Shown here: one piece after another, positions 9,279 to 35,623 of the stretch
Layout of the letters: each line of letters begins with the position of its first letter
How positions within the stretch are numbered: the first letter of the stretch is position 1
Origin: Gaiellaceae bacterium
GTDB lineage: Bacteria > Actinomycetota > Thermoleophilia > Gaiellales > Gaiellaceae
Direction of reading: 5' to 3'
DNA length: 47,750 nucleotides
NCBI GenBank assembly: GCA_035514455.1
Contig: DATKBA010000046.1
Span: 1-47,750 of the forward strand
Notes under the pieces: model-generated
Databases searched by the model: none
Told to the model about the DNA's origin: nothing
Seen by the model: only the letters and a program-made list of their open reading frames with translations
Made by a program: the position numbers and the translations under genes

Positions 9279-9728
9279 ATGAGCAGCCTCCACGACATCG
9301 AGCTGATCCCCGCCTCCGTCGACGTGTCCGCCACGTTCGACGACGCGGCGCGCGCGCTCGCCGAAAGCCGGTTGCCGGCGCTCGCCGTCCTCGACGAGGG
9401 CCACGTCGTCGGGCTCTTCACCGACGAGGAGCTCCTGCTCGGGGTCTCGCCGAAGTACCTCGACGAGCTGCGCCACACCGCGTTCCTCGAGTCGGAGCTG
9501 CCCTCGCTGCGGGAGCGCGCCGCGGCGGTGCGCTCCGAGCCCGTGCGCAAGCACATGCGCAAGCCGATCACGGTCGAGCTCGACAGCAGCTCCCTGCACG
9601 CGTCCGAGCGGTTCGTGCACTGCGACGAGGGCGCGATCGCGGTCGTCGACGACGACGGCCGCTTCGTGGGGATGCTCTCGAGGGCCGAGTTCGCGTACGC
9701 GATGCTGCGGCGCCTGACCGAGTCGTGA
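9279..9728 (+). CDS. CBS-domain pair protein
   Basis: Two CBS motifs (LPALAVLDEGHVVGLFTDEELL and GAIAVVDDDGRFVGMLSRAEF). Starts 4 nt after the permease stop. Confidence 0.85.
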   Translation: MSSLHDIELIPASVDVSATFDDAARALAESRLPALAVLDEGHVVGLFTDEELLLGVSPKYLDELRHTAFLESELPSLRERAAAVRSEPVRKHMRKPITVELDSSSLHASERFVHCDEGAIAVVDDDGRFVGMLSRAEFAYAMLRRLTES

Positions 9729-16197: not shown

Positions 16198-18216
16198 ATG
16201 TCGCACGACACCGACAAGCTGATCCGCCAGCTCTCGCTGGTCGCGTTCCTGATGGCCGAGCGGCGCCCGCTCACGGCCCGTGACGTGAAGGGGAACGTCG
16301 AGGGCTACTCCGAGATGTCCGACGAGGCGTTCGCGCGCCGCTTCTACTCCGACCGCGCCGAGCTGATCGCGCTCGGCGTCCCTCTCCACTCGCAGCGGGA
16401 CGAGTTCACCGGCGAGGAGCTGTACACGCTCCGCTCGGAGAACTACTTCCTGGACGAGCTGCGCCTCGACGACGACGAGCTCGCCGCGCTCCAGACGGCG
16501 CTCTACATGCTCGAGGGGACGTTCGCCTACGCCGAGCCGCTCCGGCTCGCGCTCCAGAACCTCGCGCTCGGCCGGCCGGGCTTCGACGACGCGCCCACGG
16601 AGACCGCGGCGAGCGTCCAGGTGCGCGACCCGGACTACTCGCCCGAGATGGCGGGTCGGCTCTCCAAGCTCGAGTCGGCGCTCTCGAAGCAGCGCACGAT
16701 CAAGTTCGCGTACTGGTCGCCGCGCCGCGACCAGGTCCGCGAGCGCACGCTCAACCCCTACGCGCTCCGGCGCGACCGCGGCACGTGGTACGTCGTCGGC
16801 CACGACCTCGACCACGACGCGGTGCGCACGTTCAGGGTCTCCCGGATTCGCAGCGACATCCGCTTCGCGACGAGGCGCGAGCGCGACTTCCGGCTGCCCG
16901 AGGGCTTCGACGTCGAGCAGCACCGGGTCGGCGAGGAGTGGCAGCACGGCCCCGTGCGCGGCACGGCCAAGGTCGAGGTGAACGGCGACACGGCCTGGTG
17001 GGTGCACCGCACGCTCAGCGACGCCGGGGCGCTCGTGGACGGCGTCTTCGAGACGGAGTACGCCGCGATCGAGCCGCTCGCCGGCTGGGTGCTGCGCCAG
17101 AACGGCCGCGCCGTCCCGCTCGAGCCGGAAGAGTTGCGCGCCGCCTGCGCCGAGGGCCTGCGGCGCGTTCGCGGGGCCCACGAGGGCGACCCGCCCAAGC
17201 TCGCGCGCGAGAAGGCCGTCGCCGCCCCGGAGCCCGGCTCCGAGCGGCCTGCCCCGCCCGTGGCGCCCGAGCGCTTCGCCGTCCTCCAGGCGCTGCTCGC
17301 CTACCTGCTCGCGGCCTGCGGCGACGGCCGCGACGCCCGCCTCGACGCCGACGACCTCGCGGCGCGCTTCCACATCCCGCGCGAGGATCTCCAGGACCAT
17401 CTCTCCCTGCTCAACCTCGTCAACTTCGGCGGCGGCTGCTACACGGTCTACGCCGAGCTGGAGGGCGACTCGGTGCGCGTCGACAAGGAGCTCTACGGCG
17501 ACGTCTTCCGGCTCGCGCCCCGTCTCACCCCGCTGGAGGCGCGCGCAATCAGGCTCGCGCTCGACATCGTCGGCCCTTCGATCGCGGCCCAGGTGCACAC
17601 GCCGCTCGACCGGGTGCGGAAGAAGCTCGAGGAGACGTTCGGCCAGTTCGAGGACCACCACGCGCCCGAGCCGCACGGCGCGGGCGACGAGGAGCAGCTC
17701 GTGGCGACGCTCTCGGACGCGATCGAGCAGCGCCGGGTCGTCGCGATCGACTACCTCAAGGACGGCGAGGAGAAGCCGTCCGGGCGGCTGATCGAGCCCT
17801 ACTCGTTCGAGCGGGTGCTGCCGCACTGGCTGATCCACTCCTGGGACCGCTCGTCCGGCGGCGAGCGCTCGTTCCGGCTCGACCGCATGCGCTCGGCGCG
17901 GCTGACGGACGAGACGTTCGAGCCGCGCGAGGGCTTCGACCCCCACTTCCTCCAGGACACGCGGCCGGTGCGCGTCCGGTACGGGAAGCCGGTCGCCCGC
18001 TACCGGATCGAGAAGGGCGCCGTCCCGCTCACCGACGGCTCGGCGCTTACGACGCTGCGGGCCGGGCGGCGCGGGGAGTGGTTGGTTTCGGAGATCCTCG
18101 CCGACCGCGGCGAGGCGGTCGTGATCGAGCCCGAGGAGCTCCGGCCCGTGATCGCGAAGCGCGCTGCGCAGCTCCTCCGCGAGCTCCGGCTGACGCGCGT
18201 CAAGCTGCCGGGCTAG
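16198..18216 (+). CDS. pafBC: Fused PafB-PafC WYL-domain transcriptional regulator
   Basis: 672 aa made of two tandem HTH-WYL-WCX units. The first contains KLIRQLSLVAFL...RTLNPYALRRDRGTWYVVGHD...RTFRVSRI. The second contains FAVLQALLAYL...LIEPYSFERVLPHWLIHSWD...RSFRLDRM. Confidence 0.85.
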   Translation: MSHDTDKLIRQLSLVAFLMAERRPLTARDVKGNVEGYSEMSDEAFARRFYSDRAELIALGVPLHSQRDEFTGEELYTLRSENYFLDELRLDDDELAALQTALYMLEGTFAYAEPLRLALQNLALGRPGFDDAPTETAASVQVRDPDYSPEMAGRLSKLESALSKQRTIKFAYWSPRRDQVRERTLNPYALRRDRGTWYVVGHDLDHDAVRTFRVSRIRSDIRFATRRERDFRLPEGFDVEQHRVGEEWQHGPVRGTAKVEVNGDTAWWVHRTLSDAGALVDGVFETEYAAIEPLAGWVLRQNGRAVPLEPEELRAACAEGLRRVRGAHEGDPPKLAREKAVAAPEPGSERPAPPVAPERFAVLQALLAYLLAACGDGRDARLDADDLAARFHIPREDLQDHLSLLNLVNFGGGCYTVYAELEGDSVRVDKELYGDVFRLAPRLTPLEARAIRLALDIVGPSIAAQVHTPLDRVRKKLEETFGQFEDHHAPEPHGAGDEEQLVATLSDAIEQRRVVAIDYLKDGEEKPSGRLIEPYSFERVLPHWLIHSWDRSSGGERSFRLDRMRSARLTDETFEPREGFDPHFLQDTRPVRVRYGKPVARYRIEKGAVPLTDGSALTTLRAGRRGEWLVSEILADRGEAVVIEPEELRPVIAKRAAQLLRELRLTRVKLPG

Positions 18217-20990: not shown

Positions 20991-21944
20991 GTGAAGGCGA
21001 TCCGCATCCACGAGGACGGTGGCCCGGAGGTGCTGCGGTACGAGGACGCTCCCGACCCCGTCGCAGGGCCGGGCGAGGTGCTCGTCTCGCTGCGGGCGGC
21101 CTCGGTCAACCATCTCGACCTCTGGGTTCGCAAGGGGCTCCCTTCGGTGCCGAAGCCGCGCATCCTCGGCGCGGACGGCTCGGGCTTGCGGGTCGACACC
21201 GGCGAGCGCGTCGTGATCAACCCCGGTCTCGAGCACGGCGCGGTGATCACGGTCGTCGGCGAGCACACCGACGGGACGCACGCGGAGCTGATTGCGGTGC
21301 CGGAGGAGAACGTCTTCCCGCTCGACGACGCGCTCGACTTCGAGACCGCGGCTGCGTTCCCGCTCGTCTTCGAGACCGCGTACCGGATGCTCGTGACGAA
21401 GGCCGGGCTCCGGGACGGCGAGTGGGTGCTGATCTGGGGCATCGGCGGCGGCGTCGCGACGGCAGCGTTCGAGATCGCGCGCACGCTCGGGGCGCGGACG
21501 CTCGTCACCTCCGGCTCGGATGCGAAGCTCGAGCGGGCCCGCGAGTGGGGCGCCGACCTCGCCGTCAACCACGCGACGGGTGACGTCGTCGCCGCGGCGA
21601 AGGAGGCGGGCGGGATCGACGTCGTCGTCGAGACCGTCGGCGAGGCGACGTGGGCACGTTCGCTCGCCGCGGTCAAGCCGGGCGGCCGGGTCACCGTGTG
21701 CGGCGCGACGAGCGGGCCGAACCCGCCGGCGCAGCTGCACCGCTTCTGGTGGAAGCAGCTGACCGTCTACGGCTCGACGATGGGCACGCGCGACGACTTC
21801 CTCGGCGCCTACGAGCTCGTGCGGAGCGGGCAGGCGCGTGTGCACGTCGACTCGACCTTCCCGCTCTCCGAGGCCCGCGCGGCCCACGAGCGGATGGAGC
21901 GGGCCGAGCAGCTCGGCAAGATCGTGCTGACGATTCCCGAGTAG
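20991..21944 (+). CDS. Zinc-type alcohol dehydrogenase / quinone oxidoreductase (MDR family)
   Basis: VKAIRIHEDGGPEVL..., a GIGGGVATAAFEIA nucleotide-binding loop, and a C-terminal GKIVLTI. I prefer GTG 20991 because ATG 20973 would overlap the divergent queG start. Confidence 0.88.
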   Translation: MKAIRIHEDGGPEVLRYEDAPDPVAGPGEVLVSLRAASVNHLDLWVRKGLPSVPKPRILGADGSGLRVDTGERVVINPGLEHGAVITVVGEHTDGTHAELIAVPEENVFPLDDALDFETAAAFPLVFETAYRMLVTKAGLRDGEWVLIWGIGGGVATAAFEIARTLGARTLVTSGSDAKLERAREWGADLAVNHATGDVVAAAKEAGGIDVVVETVGEATWARSLAAVKPGGRVTVCGATSGPNPPAQLHRFWWKQLTVYGSTMGTRDDFLGAYELVRSGQARVHVDSTFPLSEARAAHERMERAEQLGKIVLTIPE

Positions 21945-21947
21945 GGC

Positions 21948-22247
21948 TTACCCGAAGCCGAGGATGAACTTCGCGTCGTCGGACATCTTGTCCGGCGTCC
22001 ACGGCGGATCGAAGGTCAGCTCGACCTCGACCTCCTCCACGCCCTCGACCGCGGCGGCCGCCTCGTGGATCGACTCCTGGATCATCTGGCCAGCCGGGCA
22101 GCCCATCGAGGTGAGGGTGTGGATCACCTTCACCTTGGGGCCGTCGATCTCGACGTCGTAGAAGAGGCCGAGCTCGACGATGTCCATCCCGAGCTCCGGG
22201 TCCTCGACCGTGTGCAGCGCCTCGACGATCTCCTCGCGGGTTGCCAT
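21948..22247 (-). CDS. DUF59 / SufT-like Fe-S assembly protein
   Basis: MATREEIVEALHTVEDPELGMDIVELGL...TLTSMGCPAG...PPWTPDKMSD is the canonical DUF59 (MIP18) pattern. I prefer ATG 22247 over the track GTG 22280. Confidence 0.85.
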   Translation of the reverse strand: MATREEIVEALHTVEDPELGMDIVELGLFYDVEIDGPKVKVIHTLTSMGCPAGQMIQESIHEAAAAVEGVEEVEVELTFDPPWTPDKMSDDAKFILGFG

Positions 22248-22265
22248 GGGCCCGAGTGTAGCCAA

Positions 22266-22280
22266 GTGACACAGCGTCAC
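22266..22280. promoter_or_regulatory. Palindrome GTGAC-N5-GTCAC, copy 1, 19 nt upstream of the DUF59 gene start
   Basis: GTGACACAGCGTCAC read directly from the sequence. It has the same half-sites as the larger palindrome at 22332-22360. Confidence 0.35.
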
Positions 22281-22331
22281 TAGCCTCTCGGCCCGCCCGA
22301 ACGGCTTCGTTGCGCGCGACGAAGACGAAAG

Positions 22332-22360
22332 AGCGCTTGTGACACTGTGTCACAAGCGCT
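22332..22360. promoter_or_regulatory. 29-bp perfect palindrome AGCGCTTGTGACAC-T-GTGTCACAAGCGCT (operator or terminator hairpin) at the 3' end of glpX
   Basis: 14-bp arms around a single central nucleotide. It contains GTGAC-N5-GTCAC and abuts the glpX stop codon at 22360-22362. Confidence 0.45.
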
Positions 22361-23334
22361 CAACCGAGCAGGCGGACCTCTTCCTTCCGGTCGCGGGCGA
22401 AGAAGTGGATGCTCTCGGTGAAGCGCACCCAGTTGCAGCGCATGCACATCACGAGCGAATGGGTGCGCGCGCTGTCGGCGAGGAAGCGGACGCCGCGGAG
22501 CAGGTCGCCGTTCGAGACGCCCGTGGCGACGACGATCACGTCGCCCGAGGCGAGGTCGTCGGAGGAGAAGACGCGGTTGACGTCGTCGATCCCGTGCGCG
22601 GCCGCGTCCTCGATCTCGCTGCGGGTCGTCGGCCAGAGCTGCGCCTGCAGCTCGCCGCCAAGGCAGCGGAGCGCCGCCGCGGAGAGGATCGCCTGCCGCG
22701 TGCCGCCGATCCCGACCGCGAGGTGGTCGTTGGTGCCGCGGATCGCGGCCGAGATCGACGCGGTCACGTCGCCGTCCTGGATCAGCTTGATCCGCGCGCC
22801 GGCGGCACGGATCTCTTCGATCAGGTCGTGATGGCGAGGCCGGTCGAGCACGAGCGCGGTGATGTCGTTCGTGTTCCGGCCGAACGCCTTGGCGATCGCG
22901 TCGACGTTGTCCGCCATCGGCCGGACGAGGTCGATCCGGCCGCGGGCCCGCGGGCCGACGGCCATCCGGCGCATGTACATGTCGGGCAGCCGCAGGAGCG
23001 AGCCGGGCGAGCCGACCGCGATCATCGACATCGCGCCGTTGCCTCCCCGCGCAACGACGCCGCGTCCCTCCAACGGGTCGACTGCGAGGTCGACCGCCTC
23101 GCCGCCGGCGCCGATCTCGGTGCCGGCCGGGAGCAGCTCGCCGTCCTCCGGCCCGATGACGACCGTGCCGGAGATCGGCAGCTGCGAGAGGCCGGCCAGC
23201 AGCGCTCCCTCGGCTGCGTCCTCGGCGGCGTCCTGGTCGTCCCGCCCGAGCCAGCGGGCGCCCGCGAGCGCCGCCCACTCCGTCGAGCGCGCGAACAACG
23301 CGCAGGGGCAGCCGACGAACGTGCCCTCGCTCAC
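22360..23334 (-). CDS. glpX: Class II fructose-1,6-bisphosphatase family protein (GlpX)
   Basis: AVDPLEGRG, LDRPRHHDLIEEIRAAGARIKLIQDGDV, GIGGT and ATGVSNGDLLRGVR align by eye with actinobacterial GlpX. GTG 23334 overlaps the upstream stop (GTGA). Confidence 0.88.
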   Translation of the reverse strand: MSEGTFVGCPCALFARSTEWAALAGARWLGRDDQDAAEDAAEGALLAGLSQLPISGTVVIGPEDGELLPAGTEIGAGGEAVDLAVDPLEGRGVVARGGNGAMSMIAVGSPGSLLRLPDMYMRRMAVGPRARGRIDLVRPMADNVDAIAKAFGRNTNDITALVLDRPRHHDLIEEIRAAGARIKLIQDGDVTASISAAIRGTNDHLAVGIGGTRQAILSAAALRCLGGELQAQLWPTTRSEIEDAAAHGIDDVNRVFSSDDLASGDVIVVATGVSNGDLLRGVRFLADSARTHSLVMCMRCNWVRFTESIHFFARDRKEEVRLLG

Positions 23335-24251
23335 CGCCGCACCCCCTCGGCGGCCCGCTCCGCCTGCTCGAGCACGAGGTTCATCACGGCCGCGACCGTG
23401 TCGCCGTGCCGCTCGTTCTCGATCACGGGAACATCGTTCCGGGCGGCGCGCTCGAGCAGGTACTCCTGGATCATCCGGATCTCCGGCAGGCCCTCGAGGT
23501 AGCGGTCGAACGGCCGCACCCCGTCCGAGGCGTCGTCGCGGATCCAGAAGTGAGTCCGGTGGATCTCCTCGTCCCGGATCGCGAGCACGCAGTGAACGAC
23601 GAGGGCGCCGCGTAGCTCCGTCGTGATCATCCCCGGGACGAGGTGCACGCCCTCGAGCACCATCGACCAGCCCTCGTCCAGGGCCCGCTGGAGCGCAGCC
23701 TCGACGCCGGTGAGGACGTTCCGCGTCTGGTCGAGGAACCCGAGCAGCGCCGCGTCGCCGGACTCCTCCTCCTCGGCCTTCGTCAGCCCGAGGCCCGCCT
23801 CGAAGCTCGAGTAGTGGATCGACGGCATGAACTCCTTCGCGAAGAACGCGCGCATCGTCTGGCGGACGAAGTCGGTGGACGTCACGCGCGTGATCCCGAG
23901 CCGGTAGGCGACCTCGGTCGCGACCGTCGACTTGCCGGTGCCGGTGCCGCCGCCGACGAGCAGGATCACGGGCAGGTCGAGCTCCTGCAGGTCGCGGTAG
24001 CGGCGCAGCTGGCGGACCGCCCAGGCGCCCTGATCGCCCCCGAGCAGGTCGGACGCGAGCTCGCGGAGGCGGTCGAGGTCGACGGAGACCTCGTCGCGCT
24101 GCGCGAGGTCGCTCTCGGTGCGCCGCGCGAGCTCGTACGCCTGGTCCGCACGGACCCCGACCGCGGTCAGCGCACGCGTGAGCACGCCCTTCGAGAACGG
24201 CGTCTCGCCGCTGCCGAGAAATCCCCGTTCGCCCTTCCGCTGCTCGCTCAC
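23331..24251 (-). CDS. 2-phosphoglycerate kinase-like P-loop kinase
   Basis: 306 aa with an N-terminal ATP-cone-like segment (PFSKGVLTRAL...AYELA), the Walker A motif LLVGGGTGTGKSTVA and TSTDFVRQ, as in the archaeal 2PGK family (COG2074). Assignment is from recollection and needs an HMM check. Confidence 0.72.
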   Translation of the reverse strand: MSEQRKGERGFLGSGETPFSKGVLTRALTAVGVRADQAYELARRTESDLAQRDEVSVDLDRLRELASDLLGGDQGAWAVRQLRRYRDLQELDLPVILLVGGGTGTGKSTVATEVAYRLGITRVTSTDFVRQTMRAFFAKEFMPSIHYSSFEAGLGLTKAEEEESGDAALLGFLDQTRNVLTGVEAALQRALDEGWSMVLEGVHLVPGMITTELRGALVVHCVLAIRDEEIHRTHFWIRDDASDGVRPFDRYLEGLPEIRMIQEYLLERAARNDVPVIENERHGDTVAAVMNLVLEQAERAAEGVRR

Positions 24252-25495
24252 GCCGTCGCCTCCGCCGCCAGGCGCAGCAGTTCGGCGTCGAGGTCCTCGC
24301 CGCCGGCCGGAAGCACGTCGCTGCCGGCGAGCACGACCTCTGCGCCACGCTCGTGTGCGGCCTCGGCGACGACGTCGATCGCGGCCGCCTTCAGCTCGAC
24401 GAGATACACCTCGGCCTCGACCCGCCCCAGCTCCGCGCGCAACGCGGCGCGGTCGGCGAGGCTGCCCGAGACGTGGACGACGTCCGCCCCGTGCTCGTCG
24501 CGGAGGTGCGCGGCGAAGCCATCGTGCGCAGCCGCCGGAGCGGTCGAGAAGAAGGCGACCGTACGGCCCTCGACGGGCGCGGCCGGCGCGGGCCGCAGCG
24601 TGACGCCGAGCACGCGGGGCGCGAGCTCCGCCGCCCGGTCGCGCAGCCGCTCCCAGCCCGACCCTTCCTCCGCCATCGTCAGCAGCACGAGGTCCGAGAT
24701 CAGGTGGCGGAAGCCGTTCAGGTAGCCGGTCACCACCGCCGCGTCCTGCTGGGCGTTGACGACGAGGATCCGGCGGCGCGTCGCCACGGGCGGGATCGCC
24801 GCGCCGCTGCCGTCGAAGATCACGAGCTCGGGGTCGAGCCCGGCCGCGAGCTTCGCGCCCTCGTGGACGTTCGAGACCGCCACCGAGCCGGCGAGGCCGC
24901 CGCCGCAGCGGCGGCAGCCGACCGTCTCCACGCCGGCGAGCGCCGCCGTCTCGAGGTAGTCGGATGCGGCGTGCCGGCCCGAGCGGGAAAGCTCCAGCAG
25001 CGCGTCGACGTCGGGCGGGACGCTCGCCACCTCGGGCTCGGGCGGGCCGCCACGCCCCATCGCGACGACGACCACCTTCCGGTCGCGCGCGTAGAGCCGC
25101 GCCGCATGGGCCGTGATCGCCGTCTTGCCGACGCGCTTGCCCGTCCCGACGATCCCGATCGACGGGAGCGGGAACGGCTCGAGCACGGGCGGGTCGAAGC
25201 GGAAGTCGGAGCCGACGTACGGCAGCCCGGCCGCGAGCACGCGGCTCGCGAGCCGGAAGCGCTCCACCGGGCCGAGCACGGGCTCGTCCGAGAGGTCGAC
25301 GACGAGCTCGGGCCGGTGCTCGGCCAGGGCGGCGTCGAGGTCGTCCGCCAGCGCGACGCCGTAGTCGGCGTCGTCGCGGAGCTTCTCGCCGCCGCCGACG
25401 AGGTGCGCCGCGACGAACTCGTACGGCAGCTCCTCGAGCGCCGCCTTCACCACCGGCGCGTAGTGCTCCCCGTCGATGAGCGCGATCGCCCTCAT
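24248..25495 (-). CDS. cpgS: Cyclic 2,3-diphosphoglycerate synthetase-like protein
   Basis: 415 aa starting MRAIALIDGEHYAPVVKAAL, with the P-loop IGIVGTGKRVGKT, matching my recollection of archaeal cDPG synthetase. ATG 25495 overlaps the upstream stop (ATGA). The rest of the 613-aa track ORF is shadow. Confidence 0.72.
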   Translation of the reverse strand: MRAIALIDGEHYAPVVKAALEELPYEFVAAHLVGGGEKLRDDADYGVALADDLDAALAEHRPELVVDLSDEPVLGPVERFRLASRVLAAGLPYVGSDFRFDPPVLEPFPLPSIGIVGTGKRVGKTAITAHAARLYARDRKVVVVAMGRGGPPEPEVASVPPDVDALLELSRSGRHAASDYLETAALAGVETVGCRRCGGGLAGSVAVSNVHEGAKLAAGLDPELVIFDGSGAAIPPVATRRRILVVNAQQDAAVVTGYLNGFRHLISDLVLLTMAEEGSGWERLRDRAAELAPRVLGVTLRPAPAAPVEGRTVAFFSTAPAAAHDGFAAHLRDEHGADVVHVSGSLADRAALRAELGRVEAEVYLVELKAAAIDVVAEAAHERGAEVVLAGSDVLPAGGEDLDAELLRLAAEATA

Positions 25496-26301
25496 GACCG
25501 CGTCGTCACCTCGTCCTCGATCCGGCCGGTGTACTTCTCGTACTCGAACGTGTCGAGCGAGAACTGGATGATCCGCTCCTGGCCGTGGAACGGGTGCTTG
25601 CGCCAGATCGTGACGTGGCTGCCCGCCGCCTCGACGACGTTGTAACAGGGCCGCGTGTTGCCGCGGAGGCGCAGCGACGAGACCGTGCCCGTGTTGACGA
25701 CGAACAGATCCTCGAGCCTCCACGCGTACGGCACGTGCTTGTGCCCGGAGAGGACGAGGTGGACGCCCGCGCGCTGCAGGGTCTCGATCGTGTCGCCCGC
25801 GTCGTAGATCACGTTGCGCTCCCGCCCCGTCCCCGGGACCGGCAGCAGGTGGTGGTGGCAGACGAACACCTTCAGCCACGCTTCGTGGTCGAACTGCTCC
25901 TCGATCCAGCGATAGCGGCCGCGGCCGATCTGGCCGTGGTCGAGGTCGGGCTCGGTCGAGTCGACAGCGACGACGCTGACGCCCCCGACGCGCAGCACCG
26001 AGTTGCGCTCGCCGAAGAGCTGCTCGAAGTGGACGTAGCCGACGTTGCGGGAGTCGTGGTTGCCCGGGATCACGACCATCGCCTCGCACTCGACCTTGTC
26101 GAGATAGCGGCGCGCCTCCTCGTACTCGTGCTTGAAGCCGAAGGTGGTCAGGTCGCCGGAGCAGACGACGATGTCCGGCCCGAGGTCGTTGACCTCGCTG
26201 ATCGCCCGCTCGAGCAGGCCGGGGACGAAGTACTGGCCGCCGCAGTGGAGATCGGACAGGTGCGCGATCGTGAACGTCGTCCCCTTGGCCGGCTCGGACA
26301 T
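25492..26301 (-). CDS. Calcineurin-like metallophosphoesterase
   Basis: All motifs are present: HLSDLHCG, SGDLT, GNHD, CHHH and GHKH. TATGCT (minus strand, 26308-26313) lies 6 nt before ATG 26301. Confidence 0.88.
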   Translation of the reverse strand: MSEPAKGTTFTIAHLSDLHCGGQYFVPGLLERAISEVNDLGPDIVVCSGDLTTFGFKHEYEEARRYLDKVECEAMVVIPGNHDSRNVGYVHFEQLFGERNSVLRVGGVSVVAVDSTEPDLDHGQIGRGRYRWIEEQFDHEAWLKVFVCHHHLLPVPGTGRERNVIYDAGDTIETLQRAGVHLVLSGHKHVPYAWRLEDLFVVNTGTVSSLRLRGNTRPCYNVVEAAGSHVTIWRKHPFHGQERIIQFSLDTFEYEKYTGRIEDEVTTRS

Positions 26302-26327
26302 GAGCAGAGCATAGGAACTTCGGTCAG

Positions 26328-26729
26328 GTGCCGTCCGGGGGCGCAGCTACCTTGGAGGTCGTGCTCCGGCAGCAGCCCGCGTTCCGCGCCTTCGCCGGCG
26401 CGGTGCAGCCCAGGTTCGTCAACGAGGTCGAGCTCGAGTGCGCGAAGCTGCTCGACTTCTACGGCGTGCCGTGGGAGTACGAGCCGACGACGTTCGTGCT
26501 CGAGCGGGACGCCGACGGCCGCGTCACCAGCGCGTTCACGCCCGACTTCTACCTGCCCGAACAGGACCTCTACGTCGAGGTCACCGTGATGCGCCAGTCG
26601 CTCGTGACGCGCAAGAACCGCAAGCTGCGGGAGCTGAAGCGCCTCCACCCGGAAGTCAAGGTCAAGCTCTTCTACCGGCGCGACATCGAGCGCCTCGCCC
26701 AGCGATTACGCCTCCAGCTCGCGTCCTAG
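26328..26729 (+). CDS. Hypothetical protein, possibly a restriction-endonuclease-like (Vsr/DUF559-like) fold
   Basis: Diverse coding-like composition. The FTPDFYLPEQDLYVEVT core resembles the D...ExK-type nuclease strand pair. An alternative start is GTG 26361, with TACCTT 7 nt upstream. Confidence 0.6.
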   Translation: MPSGGAATLEVVLRQQPAFRAFAGAVQPRFVNEVELECAKLLDFYGVPWEYEPTTFVLERDADGRVTSAFTPDFYLPEQDLYVEVTVMRQSLVTRKNRKLRELKRLHPEVKVKLFYRRDIERLAQRLRLQLAS

Positions 26730-27328
26730 CCGACCGCCTCGCGGCCGACGGCCACCCGATCGGGGAGGTCTACCTGACGCGGGAGGAGATCACGCGCCGC
26801 GTGGGCGAGCTCGGCGCCGAGCTCGCCGGCGCCTACGCGGGCCGCGAGCCGCTGCTCGTCGGCCTGCTCAAGTCGAGCGCGGTCTTCCTCACCGACCTTT
26901 CGCGCGCCCTCCCGGTCCCGCACACGATCGACTTCCTCGAGCTCGCCGCGTACGGGAGCGGCCGCGCCGGCGCGGTCAAGCTGCTCAAGGACCTGGACAC
27001 CTCGATCGTCGGGCGCGACGTGATCGTGGTCGAGGACGTCGTCGACACCGGCCTCACGCTCAACTTCCTCGCCCGGACGCTCTCACTGCGCGACCCGGCG
27101 AGCCTCACCGCCGTCACGCTGCTCGACCGGCCCTACCGGCGCCTGGTCGACGACGTTCCGCTCGACTACGTCGGCTTCACGGTGCCGGACGAGCTCTTCG
27201 CGGGCTACGGCCTCGGCCTCGACGAGCGCTGGCGGTCGCTGCCCGACGTGCATCTCGTTGTGACGGCCGAACTCCCGCAGCACCTGACCGGCGACGCCTA
27301 CCGGCCGCCGGGCGCCGCGGCCGCCTAG
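26705..27328 (+). CDS. hpt: Hypoxanthine phosphoribosyltransferase (start codon unresolved)
   Basis: GEVYLTREEITRRVGELG, LLKSSAVFLTDLSRALPVP and the PRPP loop VIVVEDVVDTGLTL. There is no in-frame ATG/GTG/TTG between 26471 and the conserved N-terminus, so I give ATT 26705 as a placeholder start. Confidence 0.75.
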   Translation: MTPPARVLADRLAADGHPIGEVYLTREEITRRVGELGAELAGAYAGREPLLVGLLKSSAVFLTDLSRALPVPHTIDFLELAAYGSGRAGAVKLLKDLDTSIVGRDVIVVEDVVDTGLTLNFLARTLSLRDPASLTAVTLLDRPYRRLVDDVPLDYVGFTVPDELFAGYGLGLDERWRSLPDVHLVVTAELPQHLTGDAYRPPGAAAA

Positions 27329-31895: not shown

Positions 31896-32723
31896 ATGGA
31901 GCGGATTCGGATCGGGCCGGCACGCTGTCCTTCCCGGGAGTCGCCCGAGCTCGCCGTCGAGCTCCTGCTCGAGCGCGGCTACACCGCCTGCGAGCTCGAC
32001 CTGGAGAGCGGCTTCTGGCTCGACTACCCGTGGGCGGAGCGGCTCGGCGGGCTCGCCCGCGAGGCCGGGGTCGCGCTCTCGGTGCACGCGCCGCTGTTCG
32101 CGTTCCCCGGCCACCCGGACGCGAAGAAGTCGAAGATGGCCCTCGGCGCGCTCGACCGCAGCGCCGGGATCGCGGCCGCCGCCGGCGCCGAGGTGGTCGT
32201 GATCCACCCCGGCTTCTGGCTCGGCCGCGAGCGCGCGCAGGCGATCGAGGACGTGGTCGCCTGGCTGGGCGCCCTGCGGGAGCGGCTCGAGCAGAAGGAC
32301 CGGCTCGTCGCGTTCGGCGTCGAGGTGATGGGCCGCGTCAGCGAGCTCGGCTCGATCGACGACGTGCTCGAGATCTCCGCGCTCGCGCCGTGGGTGCGGC
32401 CCGTGATCGACTTCGCGCACATGCACGCCACCTCCGACGGCGCCTTCACCGACGTCGAGGCGTTCGCCGCGGTGCTCGAGGCCGCGGACGGCGTGCTCGC
32501 ACCCGGCGCCCCCTTCCACATCCACTTCTCGGACATCGCCTGGGCGAACCGGAACGAGACGAAGCACCTGCCCTACGGAGAAGGGAGCCTGCGTGCGGAG
32601 CCCCTGCGGGATGCGCTCGCCCGCTTCGAGCGGCCGGCGACCGTGATCTCGGAGTCGCCCGACGAGGCCTCGTCGCAGGCGATCCGGGCCGTGCTCTACG
32701 CGGGAGCCAGCGCCGCGTCGTAG
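31896..32723 (+). CDS. Xylose-isomerase-like TIM barrel / AP endonuclease family 2 (endonuclease IV-like)
   Basis: 275 aa with metal-ligand contexts SVHAP, VVVIHPG, IDFAHMHA and HIHFSDI. TACGGT lies 8 nt before ATG 31896. Confidence 0.78.
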   Translation: MERIRIGPARCPSRESPELAVELLLERGYTACELDLESGFWLDYPWAERLGGLAREAGVALSVHAPLFAFPGHPDAKKSKMALGALDRSAGIAAAAGAEVVVIHPGFWLGRERAQAIEDVVAWLGALRERLEQKDRLVAFGVEVMGRVSELGSIDDVLEISALAPWVRPVIDFAHMHATSDGAFTDVEAFAAVLEAADGVLAPGAPFHIHFSDIAWANRNETKHLPYGEGSLRAEPLRDALARFERPATVISESPDEASSQAIRAVLYAGASAAS

Positions 32724-35623
32724 CCTGCGAGCTCCGATTCGATCTCCTCGGCCTCCTCGACCCGCTCGCGCTCGCGCAGGAACCGCGCCAGCGCCGCCAG
32801 CAGCTCGCGGCGGATCAGCCTGAGGTCCTTCCCCTCGACGATCTCGACCGCGTCGCGCAGGAGCGCCTCCGCCTCCTCATCCCGTCCCTGCGCCGCCCGG
32901 ACGATCCCGAGCGCCATCCGCGTCGTCGCGCGGGAGATCGTGTCGTGCGACCCGACCGTCTCGCGCGCCTCCAGCGCGTAGCGCTCGGCCTCGTCGACCT
33001 TGCCCCGGGCGACGAGCACCTGGGCGAGCCCGCGCTGGCTCTCGCAGAGAGTGCCGCGGTCCTCGAGCGGCTGGAGGATGCGGATCGCGTCGCGGAAGCG
33101 CCGATCGGCCGCGGTCAGGTCGCCACGGCGCCGCTCGACCCAGCCGTAGTGGTTGCTCACCCGCGCGAGCGCCCACGCGTTGCCGGACTGGGAGAAGTGC
33201 TCCTCGGCCCGGTCGAGCCCCGCTGCCGCCTCGTCCAGCCGGCCGCGCAGCGCGTCGATGCGCGCCTGCGAGACGAGCGCCCAGCCGAGCGCGGTGATGT
33301 TGCCGCTCTCCTCGGCGAGCTCGACCGCCTCGCGAACGAGCGAGGAGGCGCGGTCGAGGTCGAGCCGCGCGATCGCAGAGCTCGCCAGCTCGTCGGCGGC
33401 ACTCGCCTCGAGGTCCTTGCGGCCGGTCTGCCTCGCCACCTCGAGCGCCTTCCCCGTCCAGCGCTCGTCGTCGTCGAGGTCGCCGAGCCACCAGCCGATC
33501 CGGGCGCGCATCGAGAGCGCCTCGTAGCGGTCCTCGGGCTTCGCGTCCTCGAGCAGCACGAGCGCCTGCTCGACGAGCTCGCGGCCGCGCGGAAGGTCGG
33601 CGTCGCGGAGAAGGGCGTTCTCGGCGAGGCCCGTCAGGGCGAGGCCCTGCAGCCGGGTTTCGCCGGCTGCCGACGCCTCGTTGAAGACGCGCTCCATCTC
33701 GACGGCCTGAGCCGGCAGGTCGGCGATTCGCCTGGCCGCGCGCGCGGCGAGGAAGCGCCGCTGCAGCGTCGGCTCGAGCTCGACGGCCCGCACGAGCAGG
33801 CGGCGCGCGGACTGGTTCGCCTCGCGGGCGAGCGCGCGGCGTCCCGCCTTCTCGAGCGCCTCGGCGGCGCGCGCCGCGAGCTCCGGAGGCGCGGACCCGT
33901 CGAGCTCCTCGTGCAGCGTGGCCGCCTGGTCGAGGTGGTAGGCGCGGATCTCGACGAGCTCCTCGCCGGCCGTCTCGCGCAGCCAGTCGGCGACGAGCTG
34001 GTGCAGCTCGGCGCGCGCGCCCTTGGCGAGGCCCGCGTAGGCGACGTCGCGGATCAGCACGTGCTTGAACCGGTAGGCGCGCTCGCCGGAGATCGAGGAG
34101 CGGCCCTCGCGGATGACGAAGTCGCGCTGGAGGAGGTCGTCGAGCACCGGCTTCAGCTCGTCGAGCTCGGGCATCAGGTGGGCGACGGTGCCCTCCCAGA
34201 AGATCCGGCCAACCACCGAGGCGCGCTGGAGAACCCGCTTCTCGTTCCGGGGCAGCCGGTCGATGCGGGCCGCGATCATCGCCTGGAGCGTGTCCGGGAT
34301 CCGCTTCGACGAGGTCCCGCCCTCCAGCAGCATCCGGGTCGTCTCCTCGACGAAGAGCGGGTTGCCCTCGGTCTTCTCGAGCAGCGCCGTCCGCTCGGCG
34401 CTCGAAAGCTCCCGGTCCGCGAGCAGCGCGTCCAGCAGCTCCTCGCTCTCGGCGGGGGCGAGCGGCTCGAGCTCGATCGCGGTCGCGCGCAGCCGGCCGC
34501 CGCCCCAACCCGGCCGGATGTCGAGCAGCTCCGGGCGCGCGAGGCAGACGATCAGCAGCGGCGCGTCCTTGACGCGCTCGGCGAGGTGCTCGACCAGCTC
34601 GAGCAGCGGCTCCTCGGCCCAGTGCACGTCCTCGAAGACGAGGATCAGAGGCTGCGCGTCGGCCAGCTCGGCCGCCCACTCGCGCGCCGCCCACGCGATC
34701 TCCTGCTGGCTGCGCTCGGTCTCGATCCCCTCGAGCACGCCTGCCGCGAGCGCGAGCAGGTCGGCGACCGCGTCGTCGCCGCAGCACGCGCGCAGCTTGC
34801 CCACCGCCTCCTGGACGGGGTCGTCGTCCGTGATCCCGGCCGCGACCTTGACCATCTCGGCCACCGGCCAGTAGGTGACGCCCTCGCCGTAGGGCAGCGA
34901 CCGGCCGACGAGGATCGTCGCACCCTCGACGCCGTCGACGAACTCGCGCGCGAGCCGGCTCTTGCCGACGCCCGGCTCCCCGTAGATCGTGAACAGGTGC
35001 GCCCGCCGGTCGCGCACGACCCGCGCGAGCGTGTTCTCGAGGAGCTCCAGCTCATAGTCGCGGCCGACGAACCCCGCCGCGACGGAGGGCGCGCGGCCGT
35101 CGCTCTCGAGGAGGCCGGTGAGCCGCCAGGCGAGCAGCGGCTCGCCGAAGCCCTTCAGGTCGAGCGGGCCCACTTCCTCGGTGTCGACCGTGCCGAGCGT
35201 CAGGCGGCGCGCGAACGGGCCGACGAGGATCTCGCCCGGCTGCGCGGCCTGCTGCAGGCGGGCGGCGACGTTGACGGCCTCCCCGGTCGCGAACGTCGAC
35301 TCGGCCTCGTCCGCGACGACCTCCCCCGCCTCGACGCCGAGACGCGCCTCGAGGCCGAGGCCGTGCACCGAGTCGAGGATCGCCGACGCCGCCCGCAGGG
35401 CGCGCTCGGCGTCGTCCTCGTGTGCCTGCGGGATCCCGAAGGCGGCCATCACGGCGTCGCCGGCGAACTTCTCGACGATCCCGCCGTGGGTCGCGATGCA
35501 GTGGGAGACGTGCTCGAAGAAGGAGTTGACGCGGCGGCGGACGACCTCCGGATCGCGCGCGGCGACGAGCTCCGTCGAGCCGACGAGGTCGACGAAGAGC
35601 ACGGTTGCGAGCTTGCGTTCCAC
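32696..35623 (-). CDS. Class III adenylate/guanylate cyclase domain fused to a STAND/AAA ATPase and TPR repeats
   Basis: The N-terminus VLFVDLVGSTEL...KFAGDAVMAAFG...GEAVNVAARL is a cyclase domain. Next comes the Walker A motif IYGEPGVGKSRLA, and then about 550 aa of TPR-like helical repeats. No C-terminal HTH is seen. Confidence 0.88.
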   Translation of the reverse strand: MERKLATVLFVDLVGSTELVAARDPEVVRRRVNSFFEHVSHCIATHGGIVEKFAGDAVMAAFGIPQAHEDDAERALRAASAILDSVHGLGLEARLGVEAGEVVADEAESTFATGEAVNVAARLQQAAQPGEILVGPFARRLTLGTVDTEEVGPLDLKGFGEPLLAWRLTGLLESDGRAPSVAAGFVGRDYELELLENTLARVVRDRRAHLFTIYGEPGVGKSRLAREFVDGVEGATILVGRSLPYGEGVTYWPVAEMVKVAAGITDDDPVQEAVGKLRACCGDDAVADLLALAAGVLEGIETERSQQEIAWAAREWAAELADAQPLILVFEDVHWAEEPLLELVEHLAERVKDAPLLIVCLARPELLDIRPGWGGGRLRATAIELEPLAPAESEELLDALLADRELSSAERTALLEKTEGNPLFVEETTRMLLEGGTSSKRIPDTLQAMIAARIDRLPRNEKRVLQRASVVGRIFWEGTVAHLMPELDELKPVLDDLLQRDFVIREGRSSISGERAYRFKHVLIRDVAYAGLAKGARAELHQLVADWLRETAGEELVEIRAYHLDQAATLHEELDGSAPPELAARAAEALEKAGRRALAREANQSARRLLVRAVELEPTLQRRFLAARAARRIADLPAQAVEMERVFNEASAAGETRLQGLALTGLAENALLRDADLPRGRELVEQALVLLEDAKPEDRYEALSMRARIGWWLGDLDDDERWTGKALEVARQTGRKDLEASAADELASSAIARLDLDRASSLVREAVELAEESGNITALGWALVSQARIDALRGRLDEAAAGLDRAEEHFSQSGNAWALARVSNHYGWVERRRGDLTAADRRFRDAIRILQPLEDRGTLCESQRGLAQVLVARGKVDEAERYALEARETVGSHDTISRATTRMALGIVRAAQGRDEEAEALLRDAVEIVEGKDLRLIRRELLAALARFLRERERVEEAEEIESELAGYDAALAPA

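Follow-up and report, generated by a model that had tools for sequence, protein, structure and literature searches.

A predicted cyclic 2,3-diphosphoglycerate gene module in a probably leaderless operon of a Gaiellaceae bacterium

Introduction

Does a mesophilic soil actinobacterium carry the genes to make, and perhaps also to break down, cyclic 2,3-diphosphoglycerate (cDPG)? What raises this question is contig DATKBA010000046.1 of a Gaiellaceae bacterium (Actinomycetota, Thermoleophilia), of which a stretch of 47,750 nucleotides (nt), hereafter the window, was analysed, and in particular an operon located at 22360-26301 on its minus strand. An original prediction, made from the letters of this DNA, had read its four genes as coding for a metallophosphoesterase (MPE), a protein similar to cDPG synthetase (cDPGS), a protein similar to 2-phosphoglycerate kinase (2PGK) and a GlpX-family sugar bisphosphatase, had labelled the cDPG genes as archaeal-type, and had suggested that all four constitute a single functional module.

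Here we report that the conserved unit is the triad of 2PGK, cDPGS and MPE, which occurs in both Bacteria and Archaea. Our preferred reading, to which we assign a probability of about 0.6, is that the leaderless and coupled operon of the window represents the bacterial form of this cross-domain three-gene cDPG module, extended by a lineage-variable accessory gene. The enzyme families are known; what is new here is the gene module in a new host range and in operon form, together with its two partner proteins.

The 415-aa and 306-aa proteins are members of the cDPGS and 2PGK families

Searches of our Pfam and NCBIfam copies returned no match for the protein of 415 amino acids (aa); the copies used contained no cDPGS model, and its identity was therefore established through the PDB and through the precomputed Pfam family PF27272 (CpgS_N), which is carried by its close homologues. 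With phmmer, residues 3-390 aligned onto residues 6-426 of structure 8ORU of the Methanothermus fervidus cDPGS (entries 8ORU/8ORK, E = 2.3e-82); global identity to this enzyme was 45%, with the alignment covering the N-terminal domain and the P-loop core. In the M. fervidus enzyme, 2,3-diphosphoglycerate (2,3-DPG), Mg2+ and ADP are contacted by E45, K46, K145, R146, K149, T150, D208, E305, T353, E404 and K406, with E45 and K46 contributed by the partner subunit (PMC10690619). All 11 of these mappable ligand residues are identical in the window protein (E37, K38, K120, R121, K124, T125, D179, E276, T318, E367 and K369). The published “P335”, which maps to Phe under the numbering offset used, was left uncounted, and the nearby P337 of M. 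fervidus is conserved as P302. By these comparisons, the 415-aa protein is a true cDPG synthetase homologue.

At E ≤ 1e-30, a search of 1.84 billion representatives gave 272 clusters (50% identity) for the family, and relatives of the protein were found in at least 532 GTDB species genomes. The third PDB entry of the family, 9SXB, was considered as a possible bacterial cDPGS and set aside, being of the Thermococcus type.

The 306-aa protein encoded next in the operon matched the NCBIfam model PRK04220 with 267.4 bits (E = 1.7e-79) across profile positions 14-296 of 306; the mevalonate-3-phosphate 5-kinase model scored 87 bits, far below that value. A weak Pfam ATP-cone match at residues 17-89 precedes the P-loop GGGTGTGKS, and identities of 31-42% were found to the kinases adjacent to cDPGS in loci of Coriobacteriia, Cloacimonadota, Thermococcus and Asgard archaea. 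On the profile evidence it is a full-length member of the 2-phosphoglycerate kinase family. The PDB search, the PRK04220 match and the ligand-residue comparison hence agree in placing the two central proteins in the cDPGS and 2PGK families, as had been proposed, and not in unrelated P-loop families.

A three-gene unit is linked in Bacteria and Archaea

Gene order was compared first of all within the order Gaiellales, using the best 80 of the at least 532 matching species genomes, which were obtained in a search with a 17-sequence alignment and ranked by similarity to the window cDPGS. These 80 loci all belong to Gaiellales or other Thermoleophilia, with cDPGS identities of 57-83%. MPE, cDPGS and 2PGK follow each other in the same order in 80 out of 80 loci; about 26 loci have no GlpX-like gene in the cluster, and there a DUF59 gene stands directly after 2PGK. 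The whole region of 20 kb is syntenic across Gaiellales.

At larger distances the arrangement varies around the same partners. Rubrobacter xylanophilus DSM 9941 (CP000386.1, 1672700-1688028; locus L082 of our survey) has the order argS-MPE-cDPGS-GlpX-like-rho, with no 2PGK in the cluster, and a Coriobacteriia genome, genome OW818687 and a JGI contig have MPE-cDPGS-2PGK-FSA/transaldolase-rho, where the FSA gene of the Coriobacteriia locus overlaps 2PGK by 4 nt. A Cloacimonadota contig carries cDPGS-2PGK-CBS-MPE, with the MPE being a tandem duplication of 499 aa, and an Asgard (Borrarchaeum-like) contig carries GDPD-cDPGS-2PGK-MPE, with a tandem MPE of 511 aa. On a contig of the Thermococcus paralvinellae type, cDPGS and 2PGK overlap by 4 nt and no MPE is present; Thermococcus-like metagenome loci (62-70% identity) mostly have cDPGS-2PGK-CBS-tandem MPE. 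In Methanothermobacter and Methanobacterium the cDPGS gene is a lone one: a RimB-like gene follows it, and neither 2PGK nor MPE is adjacent.

A sample of 80 diverse metagenome loci, collected in a scan seeded on an Asgard-like sequence, was assessed wherever there was enough flanking sequence for a locus to be informative. Among 34 informative loci not resembling Methanobacteriales, an MPE of the same subfamily adjoined cDPGS in 26 and 2PGK was present in 26, while six had neither; among 14 informative Methanobacteriales-like loci, MPE and 2PGK were present in none. The idea of a four-gene functional module is thus supported for MPE, cDPGS and 2PGK, whose linkage is conserved across phyla, and fails for the GlpX-like gene, which is absent from about 26 of the 80 Gaiellales loci and, in Coriobacteriia-type loci, replaced by FSA/transaldolase, so that the four-gene linkage as such is not conserved. 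It may be that a third partner went without mention in the literature we found because Methanobacteriales, the one group in which cDPG was discovered and investigated, has dispersed genes.

Several further neighbours were recorded in this survey. The RimB-like gene of Methanobacteriales (weak PF05618 match) lies 3' of cDPGS on the same strand (7405-7935 in L085, 7400-7987 in L086) and also in 11 metagenome loci, e.g. L095, L097 and L104-L109; it may be a lineage-specific partner of cDPGS there. A CBS-pair protein is encoded between 2PGK and the tandem MPE in Cloacimonadota-like and Thermococcus-like loci (L087, L107, L115, L117, L124, L130-L132, L138, L143, L150 and L159), a position that suggests control of the module by nucleotides or energy charge. 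The window's own CBS protein (9279-9728), encoded 13 kb from the operon with a transporter on either side, probably has nothing to do with the module. Outside Gaiellales, the actinobacterial module is situated just upstream of rho-rpmE-prfA-prmC (L082, L083, L084, L088 and about 13 metagenome loci), and its last gene there codes either for the GlpX-like protein or for an FSA/transaldolase that passes TIGR00875. In Gram-positives/Firmicutes, e.g. B. subtilis, tal or glpX beside rho is an old gene order; the rho-proximal position resembles this order, and part of the GlpX/FSA adjacency may therefore be inherited.

The metallophosphoesterase is the best candidate for a cDPG hydrolase

The first gene of the operon encodes an MPE of 269 aa, which matched PF00149 (Metallophos) with 65.3 bits against a cut-off of 21.5 (1.3e-17), and in which the canonical metal-binding motifs SDLH, GDLT, GNHD, HHH and GHKH could be read; Pfam and NCBIfam gave no match to a membrane domain. 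In an alignment of 133 subfamily domains (window included), G49, D50, G80, D83, H149, H150, G186 and H187 were conserved to at least 94%, and other near-invariant positions, e.g. G123, G126, P154, P156, R160, E161 and R213, are particular to this subfamily. The nearest solved structures are Rv0805 and GpdQ (E~2e-7). The protein is named CpdA/Icc by JGI; with 31.5 bits against a cut-off of 225 for the NCBIfam equivalog PRK11148, it is not CpdA by that test, and we regard the database name as a superfamily-level transfer.

Identity to the cDPGS-adjacent MPEs of Rubrobacter, Coriobacteriia and locus L088 is 50-57%, higher than for cDPGS (45-50%) and 2PGK (39-42%) in the same Rubrobacter and Coriobacteriia-type comparisons. 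Against the tandem MPEs of the Cloacimonadota and Asgard loci, identity is 25-32% for either half, with best E-values of 5e-44 and 3e-34; these are far better than to any solved MPE, and the cDPGS-linked MPEs are therefore considered one subfamily.

To our knowledge, no gene has ever been assigned to cDPG hydrolase activity. Some members of the calcineurin-like superfamily cleave phosphodiester and some phosphoanhydride bonds, and this chemistry, combined with the position of the subfamily next to cDPGS across phyla, makes the MPE the best candidate for a cDPG hydrolase or turnover enzyme, or for a 2,3-DPG phosphatase. That it belongs to the pathway, as had been proposed, is strongly reinforced by the occurrence of the same subfamily beside cDPGS-2PGK in several bacterial phyla and in archaea; for the narrower assignment as cDPG hydrolase, we would put the chances somewhat short of even. 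M. thermautotrophicus is documented to have an activity of this kind, membrane-bound or soluble and inhibited by K+ and phosphate (work of van Alebeek 1994 and of Sastry 1992, reviewed in PMC1224877).

The GlpX-like protein has a remodelled active site

The last gene of the operon encodes a protein of 324 aa that NCBI labels as a class II fructose bisphosphatase (FBPase). It matched Pfam FBPase_glpX (1e-102), passed TIGR00330 marginally (267.9 bits, cut-off 259.3; the Rubrobacter cluster copy fails with 248) and shares 41.5% identity with GlpX of M. tuberculosis. Residue roles in this enzyme class were taken from work on M. tuberculosis, E. coli and F. tularensis. In M. tuberculosis numbering, the catalytic set consists of D27, E51, D79, D82, T84, Y114, R159, R161, D183 and E208 (PMC5892879, PMC10289334), and replacement of the Thr by Ala (T84A, T89A) inactivates the enzyme, its replacement by Ser leaving it partly active (PMC5892879, PMC5485559, PMC10289334).

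The window protein fails a test for this catalytic constellation, with T84 replaced by R91. Further substitutions are E51 to P62, E208 to Q214 and D27 to E38, where P62 sits in a degenerate and shortened GEGE motif, with loss of the apical metal ligand. Retained are D79, D82 (as Glu, E. coli-like), the 6-phosphate triad Y114/R159/R161, and D181 and D183 of the DGD motif. The change is shared by the cluster-linked copies: among 57 of them, the position of the catalytic Thr is occupied by Arg (41), Ser (12) or else Ala, Gly or Leu, and by Thr in none, Glu is found at E51 in one copy, and Gln at E208 in 55 out of 56. At the Thr position, Leu, Leu and Ala are present in the Rubrobacter copy and in two copies from metagenomes. 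Within Gaiellales the protein is 70-87% identical, which argues for functional and not decaying genes.

Owing to the loss of the Thr and of other catalytic residues, we did not file the protein as an FBPase; it is probably a remodelled GlpX-derived paralogue and not a canonical class II FBPase, most likely one that binds a phosphorylated ligand without hydrolysing it, or that has shifted to another substrate. As a speculation, Thr to Arg and Glu to Gln make the pocket less negative and would suit a polyanion such as 2,3-DPG or cDPG. In the genome paper of Gaiella occulta, the annotated FBPase adjoins fructose-bisphosphate aldolase (fba), i.e. it has another context, which hints at a separate canonical enzyme. 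The designation of the window gene as a sugar bisphosphatase is therefore unlikely to hold in its ordinary sense, given that the catalytic Thr, which is the FBPase nucleophile, and two residues for metal binding or activation are lost.

Operon structure and transcription signals

Gene calls based on the listing of open reading frames (ORFs) and on a coding score derived from G+C by codon position (GC3) recovered the four minus-strand genes with exactly the boundaries proposed earlier (Table 1). The start/stop overlaps ATGA (25492-25495), GTGA (24248-24251) and GTGA (23331-23334) were seen in the sequence, as was the TATGCT box with a 6-nt spacer to the ATG at 26301, and the peptides quoted in the prediction, MRAIALIDGEHYAPV and GIVGTGKRVGKT, were found in the translations. 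The predicted families were confirmed by Pfam and NCBIfam for the Metallophos, 2PGK and GlpX genes, and by the PDB search for cDPGS.

Table 1. Features of the predicted cDPG operon in the window
Feature	Coordinates	Strand	Basis or remark
-10-type promoter hexamer TATGCT	26308..26313	-	6 nt 5' of first ATG; leaderless start inferred
Metallophosphoesterase (MPE), 269 aa	25492..26301	-	Pfam Metallophos; cDPGS-associated subfamily
Homologue of cDPG synthetase (cDPGS), 415 aa	24248..25495	-	phmmer vs PDB
2-Phosphoglycerate kinase (2PGK) family protein, 306 aa	23331..24251	-	NCBIfam PRK04220
GlpX-like protein, remodelled active site, 324 aa	22360..23334	-	Pfam FBPase_glpX
Terminator-like hairpin	22331..22361	-	14-bp stem, 3-nt loop, then T-rich TTTCGTCTTC

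At least eight further gene pairs of the window have 4-nt overlaps as well; these therefore mark membership of an operon and are not unusual per se. Shine-Dalgarno-like runs (GAGG/GGAGG/GAGGGGG) precede the three internal starts, with GGAGG placed 7 nt 5' of the GTG of 2PGK, and none was found 5' of the first ATG, that of the MPE gene. A scan with the sigma-70 consensus, which is uninformative for an actinobacterium of 72% G+C, revealed no promoter; comparative conservation of the box was used instead. In 71 of 78 related Gaiellales loci, the first gene has a TANNNT hexamer (TACACT, TAGACT or TATGCT) 5-8 nt 5' of an in-frame start; the spacing is exactly 6 nt in 49 loci, and the background frequency is 0.0007 per position. 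This is above chance and fits a leaderless transcript. The hairpin overlaps the stop codon of the glpX-like gene, closes the operon and is the sole terminator-like site within 21800-26800. Overlaps, conserved box and terminator together support the proposed single transcription unit, coupled and probably leaderless.

A riboswitch or leader RNA was considered and rejected, given that the window has no Rfam matches or tRNAs and the transcript is apparently leaderless. Antisense ORFs of 360-430 aa (24353-25645, 22339-23502 and 23643-24725, all on the plus strand) were rejected as genes because of coding scores that were low or below the listing threshold; long antisense ORFs are a usual artefact of DNA with 72% G+C.

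Origin, annotation and literature

The label “archaeal-type” turned out to be overstated: at least 532 species genomes match, the best 80 all come from Gaiellales or other Thermoleophilia, and the sequences form an actinobacterial clade of their own. In a rough neighbour-joining tree, calculated with no support values, cDPGS of Gaiellales, Rubrobacter, Thermoleophilia and Coriobacteriia fell into one clade, which is apart from Methanobacteriales and from a mixed group of Cloacimonadota, Thermococcus and Asgard sequences. The Actinomycetota sequences are thus not nested within those of methanogens in this rough tree. The G+C content is 72% throughout the window, with a flat profile over the cluster, and window proteins are nearest to those of Gaiellaceae metagenome-assembled genomes. 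From the separate clade, seen in that unsupported tree, and from the flat profile, a recent transfer from methanogens was rejected; the separate clade points to genes long resident in deep-branching Actinomycetota and not to a recent archaeal import.

Automatic annotation in JGI and NCBI already gives bacterial homologues the name cDPG synthetase, including in the R. xylanophilus genome of 2006. The statement that no bacterial cDPG pathway had been characterised agrees with the literature searched, in which we found no paper on such a pathway, on the linked MPE or on a Thr-less GlpX paralogue; the genome paper of G. occulta makes no mention of the cDPG cluster genes.

Proposed function and alternative explanations

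In the cycle that we propose, the 2PGK homologue, going by its family, would phosphorylate 2-phosphoglycerate to 2,3-DPG, and the cDPGS homologue, going by homology and the conserved mappable ligand residues, would use ATP to close the intramolecular pyrophosphate of cDPG, so that the route would cost two ATP. The MPE may then hydrolyse cDPG to 2,3-DPG, or dephosphorylate 2,3-DPG, and so draw the pool down, as would fit its cross-phylum linkage and the chemistry of its superfamily. The GlpX-like protein would most likely be a partner that binds a ligand or regulates, or else a phosphatase of changed substrate, rather than a housekeeping FBPase. The accessory genes of other lineages (CBS pair, FSA and GDPD) might provide regulation by energy charge and connect the module with the metabolism of triose and hexose phosphates.

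Precedents for operons in which a reserve compound is both made and degraded are ppk-ppx, the glg genes and cphA-cphB. For a mesophile living in soil, a phosphate, carbon or energy reserve, or a stress protectant, would be a more plausible role of the product than a molar thermoprotectant. Such reserve and turnover agree with an earlier suggestion for M. thermautotrophicus, in which cDPG is a fast-turnover store of carbon and phosphate on a gluconeogenic branch (PMC1224877). A bolder extension, which we put forward tentatively and consider rather unlikely in its entirety, is that 2PGK, cDPGS and MPE make up an ancient cross-domain cycle of synthesis and regulated hydrolysis, serving as reserve or protectant in abundant mesophiles (Gaiellales of soils, Coriobacteriia and Cloacimonadota among them), with the MPE as the hydrolase and the GlpX-like protein as either a sensor or pseudoenzyme, or a phosphatase specific for 2,3-DPG or cDPG that ties the pool to gluconeogenesis.

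A number of points weigh against the operon being a cDPG module. The compound has been described as exclusive to hyperthermophilic methanogens (PMC10690619), and its production in bacteria is predicted here from genes. The score of the 306-aa protein lies under the PRK04220 equivalog cut-off of 343 bits, for which reason the protein was filed as a family member and its function read from the linkage to cDPGS; among the kinases neighbouring cDPGS, all bacterial and Asgard ones also remain under the cut-off (307-313), and that of Thermococcus is over it (401). The family furthermore includes mevalonate-3-phosphate 5-kinase, so that 2-phosphoglycerate is a putative substrate of the 306-aa protein. 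Conservation within Gaiellales is by itself weak evidence of functional linkage because of the synteny of the whole 20-kb region, which is why distant taxa were examined. In Methanobacteriales, the only group with measured cDPG hydrolase activity, no MPE is adjacent to cDPGS. Finally, synthetase and hydrolase in one operon would amount to a futile cycle unless regulated. It is on account of the methanogen-only reports, the kinase score and the lack of a linked MPE in Methanobacteriales that our confidence was held at the level given above.

An alternative that we judge improbable is that the module controls 2,3-DPG, either as the cofactor of cofactor-dependent phosphoglycerate mutase or as a regulatory metabolite, with 2PGK making it, cDPGS and MPE buffering or removing it, and cDPG being minor and transient. 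Such a role would be in line with a mesophilic host that has no obvious need of a molar thermoprotectant, with the pairing of synthetic and hydrolytic enzymes in the operon, with 2PGK beside cDPGS in 26 of the 34 informative loci outside Methanobacteriales, and with Rubrobacter solute surveys, which do not list cDPG. The ligand residues of cDPGS are nevertheless intact and the gene has been kept over large distances, which argues that the cyclisation step itself is selected, and 2,3-DPG at cofactor level is normally made without a dedicated kinase.

Could the enzymes act instead on a different phosphorylated acid or alcohol, yielding a related cyclic pyrophosphate or phosphoanhydride that is processed by the MPE and the GlpX-like protein? 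We hold this to be distinctly unlikely: the 2,3-DPG contacts E45, K145 and R146 and the Mg ligands T150 and D208 of M. fervidus are identical in the window, and in related loci a Thermococcus-type 2PGK, which passes the cut-off with 401 bits, takes part in the architecture cDPGS-2PGK-CBS-MPE. The points that would speak for another substrate are the sub-cut-off score of the 2PGK homologue in a family that accommodates mevalonate-3-phosphate 5-kinase, the identity of just 45% between cDPGS and the characterised enzyme, the GlpX-like protein with its sugar-6-phosphate-type triad retained and its catalytic residues changed, and the variation of partner genes by lineage (GlpX-like, FSA, CBS, GDPD).

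It is very unlikely that the adjacency is simply inherited gene order, with the MPE an ordinary cyclic-nucleotide phosphodiesterase (CpdA/Icc) and GlpX a housekeeping gluconeogenic FBPase, as the JGI and NCBI names, the 20-kb synteny across Gaiellales and the clusters just upstream of rho in Rubrobacter and Coriobacteriia (a glpX/tal-rho order as in B. subtilis) might suggest, given that the MPE reaches just 31.5 bits of the 225 required for CpdA, that its subfamily is linked to cDPGS-2PGK in unrelated contexts (Cloacimonadota, Thermococcus-like and Asgard), that between actinobacterial classes it is more conserved (50-57%) than cDPGS (45-50%) or 2PGK (39-42%), that the GlpX-like protein has lost the Thr whose replacement by Ala inactivates true FBPases, and that the annotated FBPase of G. 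occulta lies beside fba in a separate context.

Neighbouring genes and other features of the window

The operon is flanked on one side by genes for DUF59 Fe-S assembly, an alcohol-dehydrogenase-type oxidoreductase, QueG, a GAF histidine kinase and a PafBC-like WYL protein, and on the other by a small ORF with no known family, a phosphoribosyltransferase, an M23 peptidase and CcmF/CcmE; the flanking genes are housekeeping genes unrelated to the cluster.

The small ORF is divergent (26328-26729, plus strand; alternative start at 26352; 125-133 aa), belongs to no Pfam family and shows a weak similarity to endonuclease I of phage T7 (PDB 3CAE, E = 0.0016). This ORF is kept at its position in essentially all Gaiellales loci and is absent from the loci of Rubrobacter, Coriobacteriia, Cloacimonadota and archaea. 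Its 5' end contains a conserved DNA motif, GGTAGC-N7-CCCGGACGG, which may be coding or regulatory. The PafBC-like protein (16198-18216, plus strand; 672 aa) contains two WYL domains together with a WCX domain and an HTH of the PafC type, resembles a fused PafBC-like regulator, and is conserved at the edge of the Gaiellales syntenic block. At 32696-35602 on the minus strand, a 968-aa protein combines adenylate/guanylate cyclase, AAA ATPase and TPR repeats, and is also present in the syntenic relative L001.

Significance and comparison with known systems

The gene pair for cDPG biosynthesis occurs widely among mesophilic bacteria, one of the commonest actinobacterial orders of soil included, and its presence in mesophiles means that the purpose of cDPG is not explained by thermoprotection alone. 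On homology and gene linkage, the finding challenges the textbook view that this extremolyte of commercial interest is restricted to hyperthermophilic methanogens. One MPE subfamily is also singled out as the obvious protein to test as cDPG hydrolase. Proteins annotated as class II FBPase that lack the Thr may be mis-annotated, which bears on reconstructions of gluconeogenesis and the Calvin cycle in these lineages.

Compared with the cDPG route of M. fervidus and Methanothermobacter, the window has both enzyme families in common, with 2PGK of the same full-length architecture. The cDPGS gene of Methanobacteriales stands alone, whereas that of the window is part of a coupled operon in which the MPE gene comes first and the GlpX-like gene last. 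The hosts differ as well, namely hyperthermophilic methanogens for cDPG itself and a mesophilic soil actinobacterium for the window, the product of which is predicted from its genes.

The hydrolase activity of M. thermautotrophicus constitutes the missing degradative step of the pathway, to which the MPE of the window, a hydrolase genomically tied to cDPGS, could correspond. With Rv0805, CpdA/Icc and GpdQ, this MPE shares the calcineurin-like fold and the canonical motifs; it is only distantly related to them, and its subfamily has near-invariant residues of its own and a conserved genomic partner. The class II FBPases of M. tuberculosis (6AYY), E. coli (3D1R) and F. tularensis (7JS3) have the same fold as the GlpX-like protein and share with it the DPxEG metal site, the Tyr and two Arg that hold the 6-phosphate, and the DGD motif, whereas the catalytic Thr of the true FBPases (T84 in M. 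tuberculosis, T90 in E. coli and T89 in F. tularensis) is an Arg in the window.

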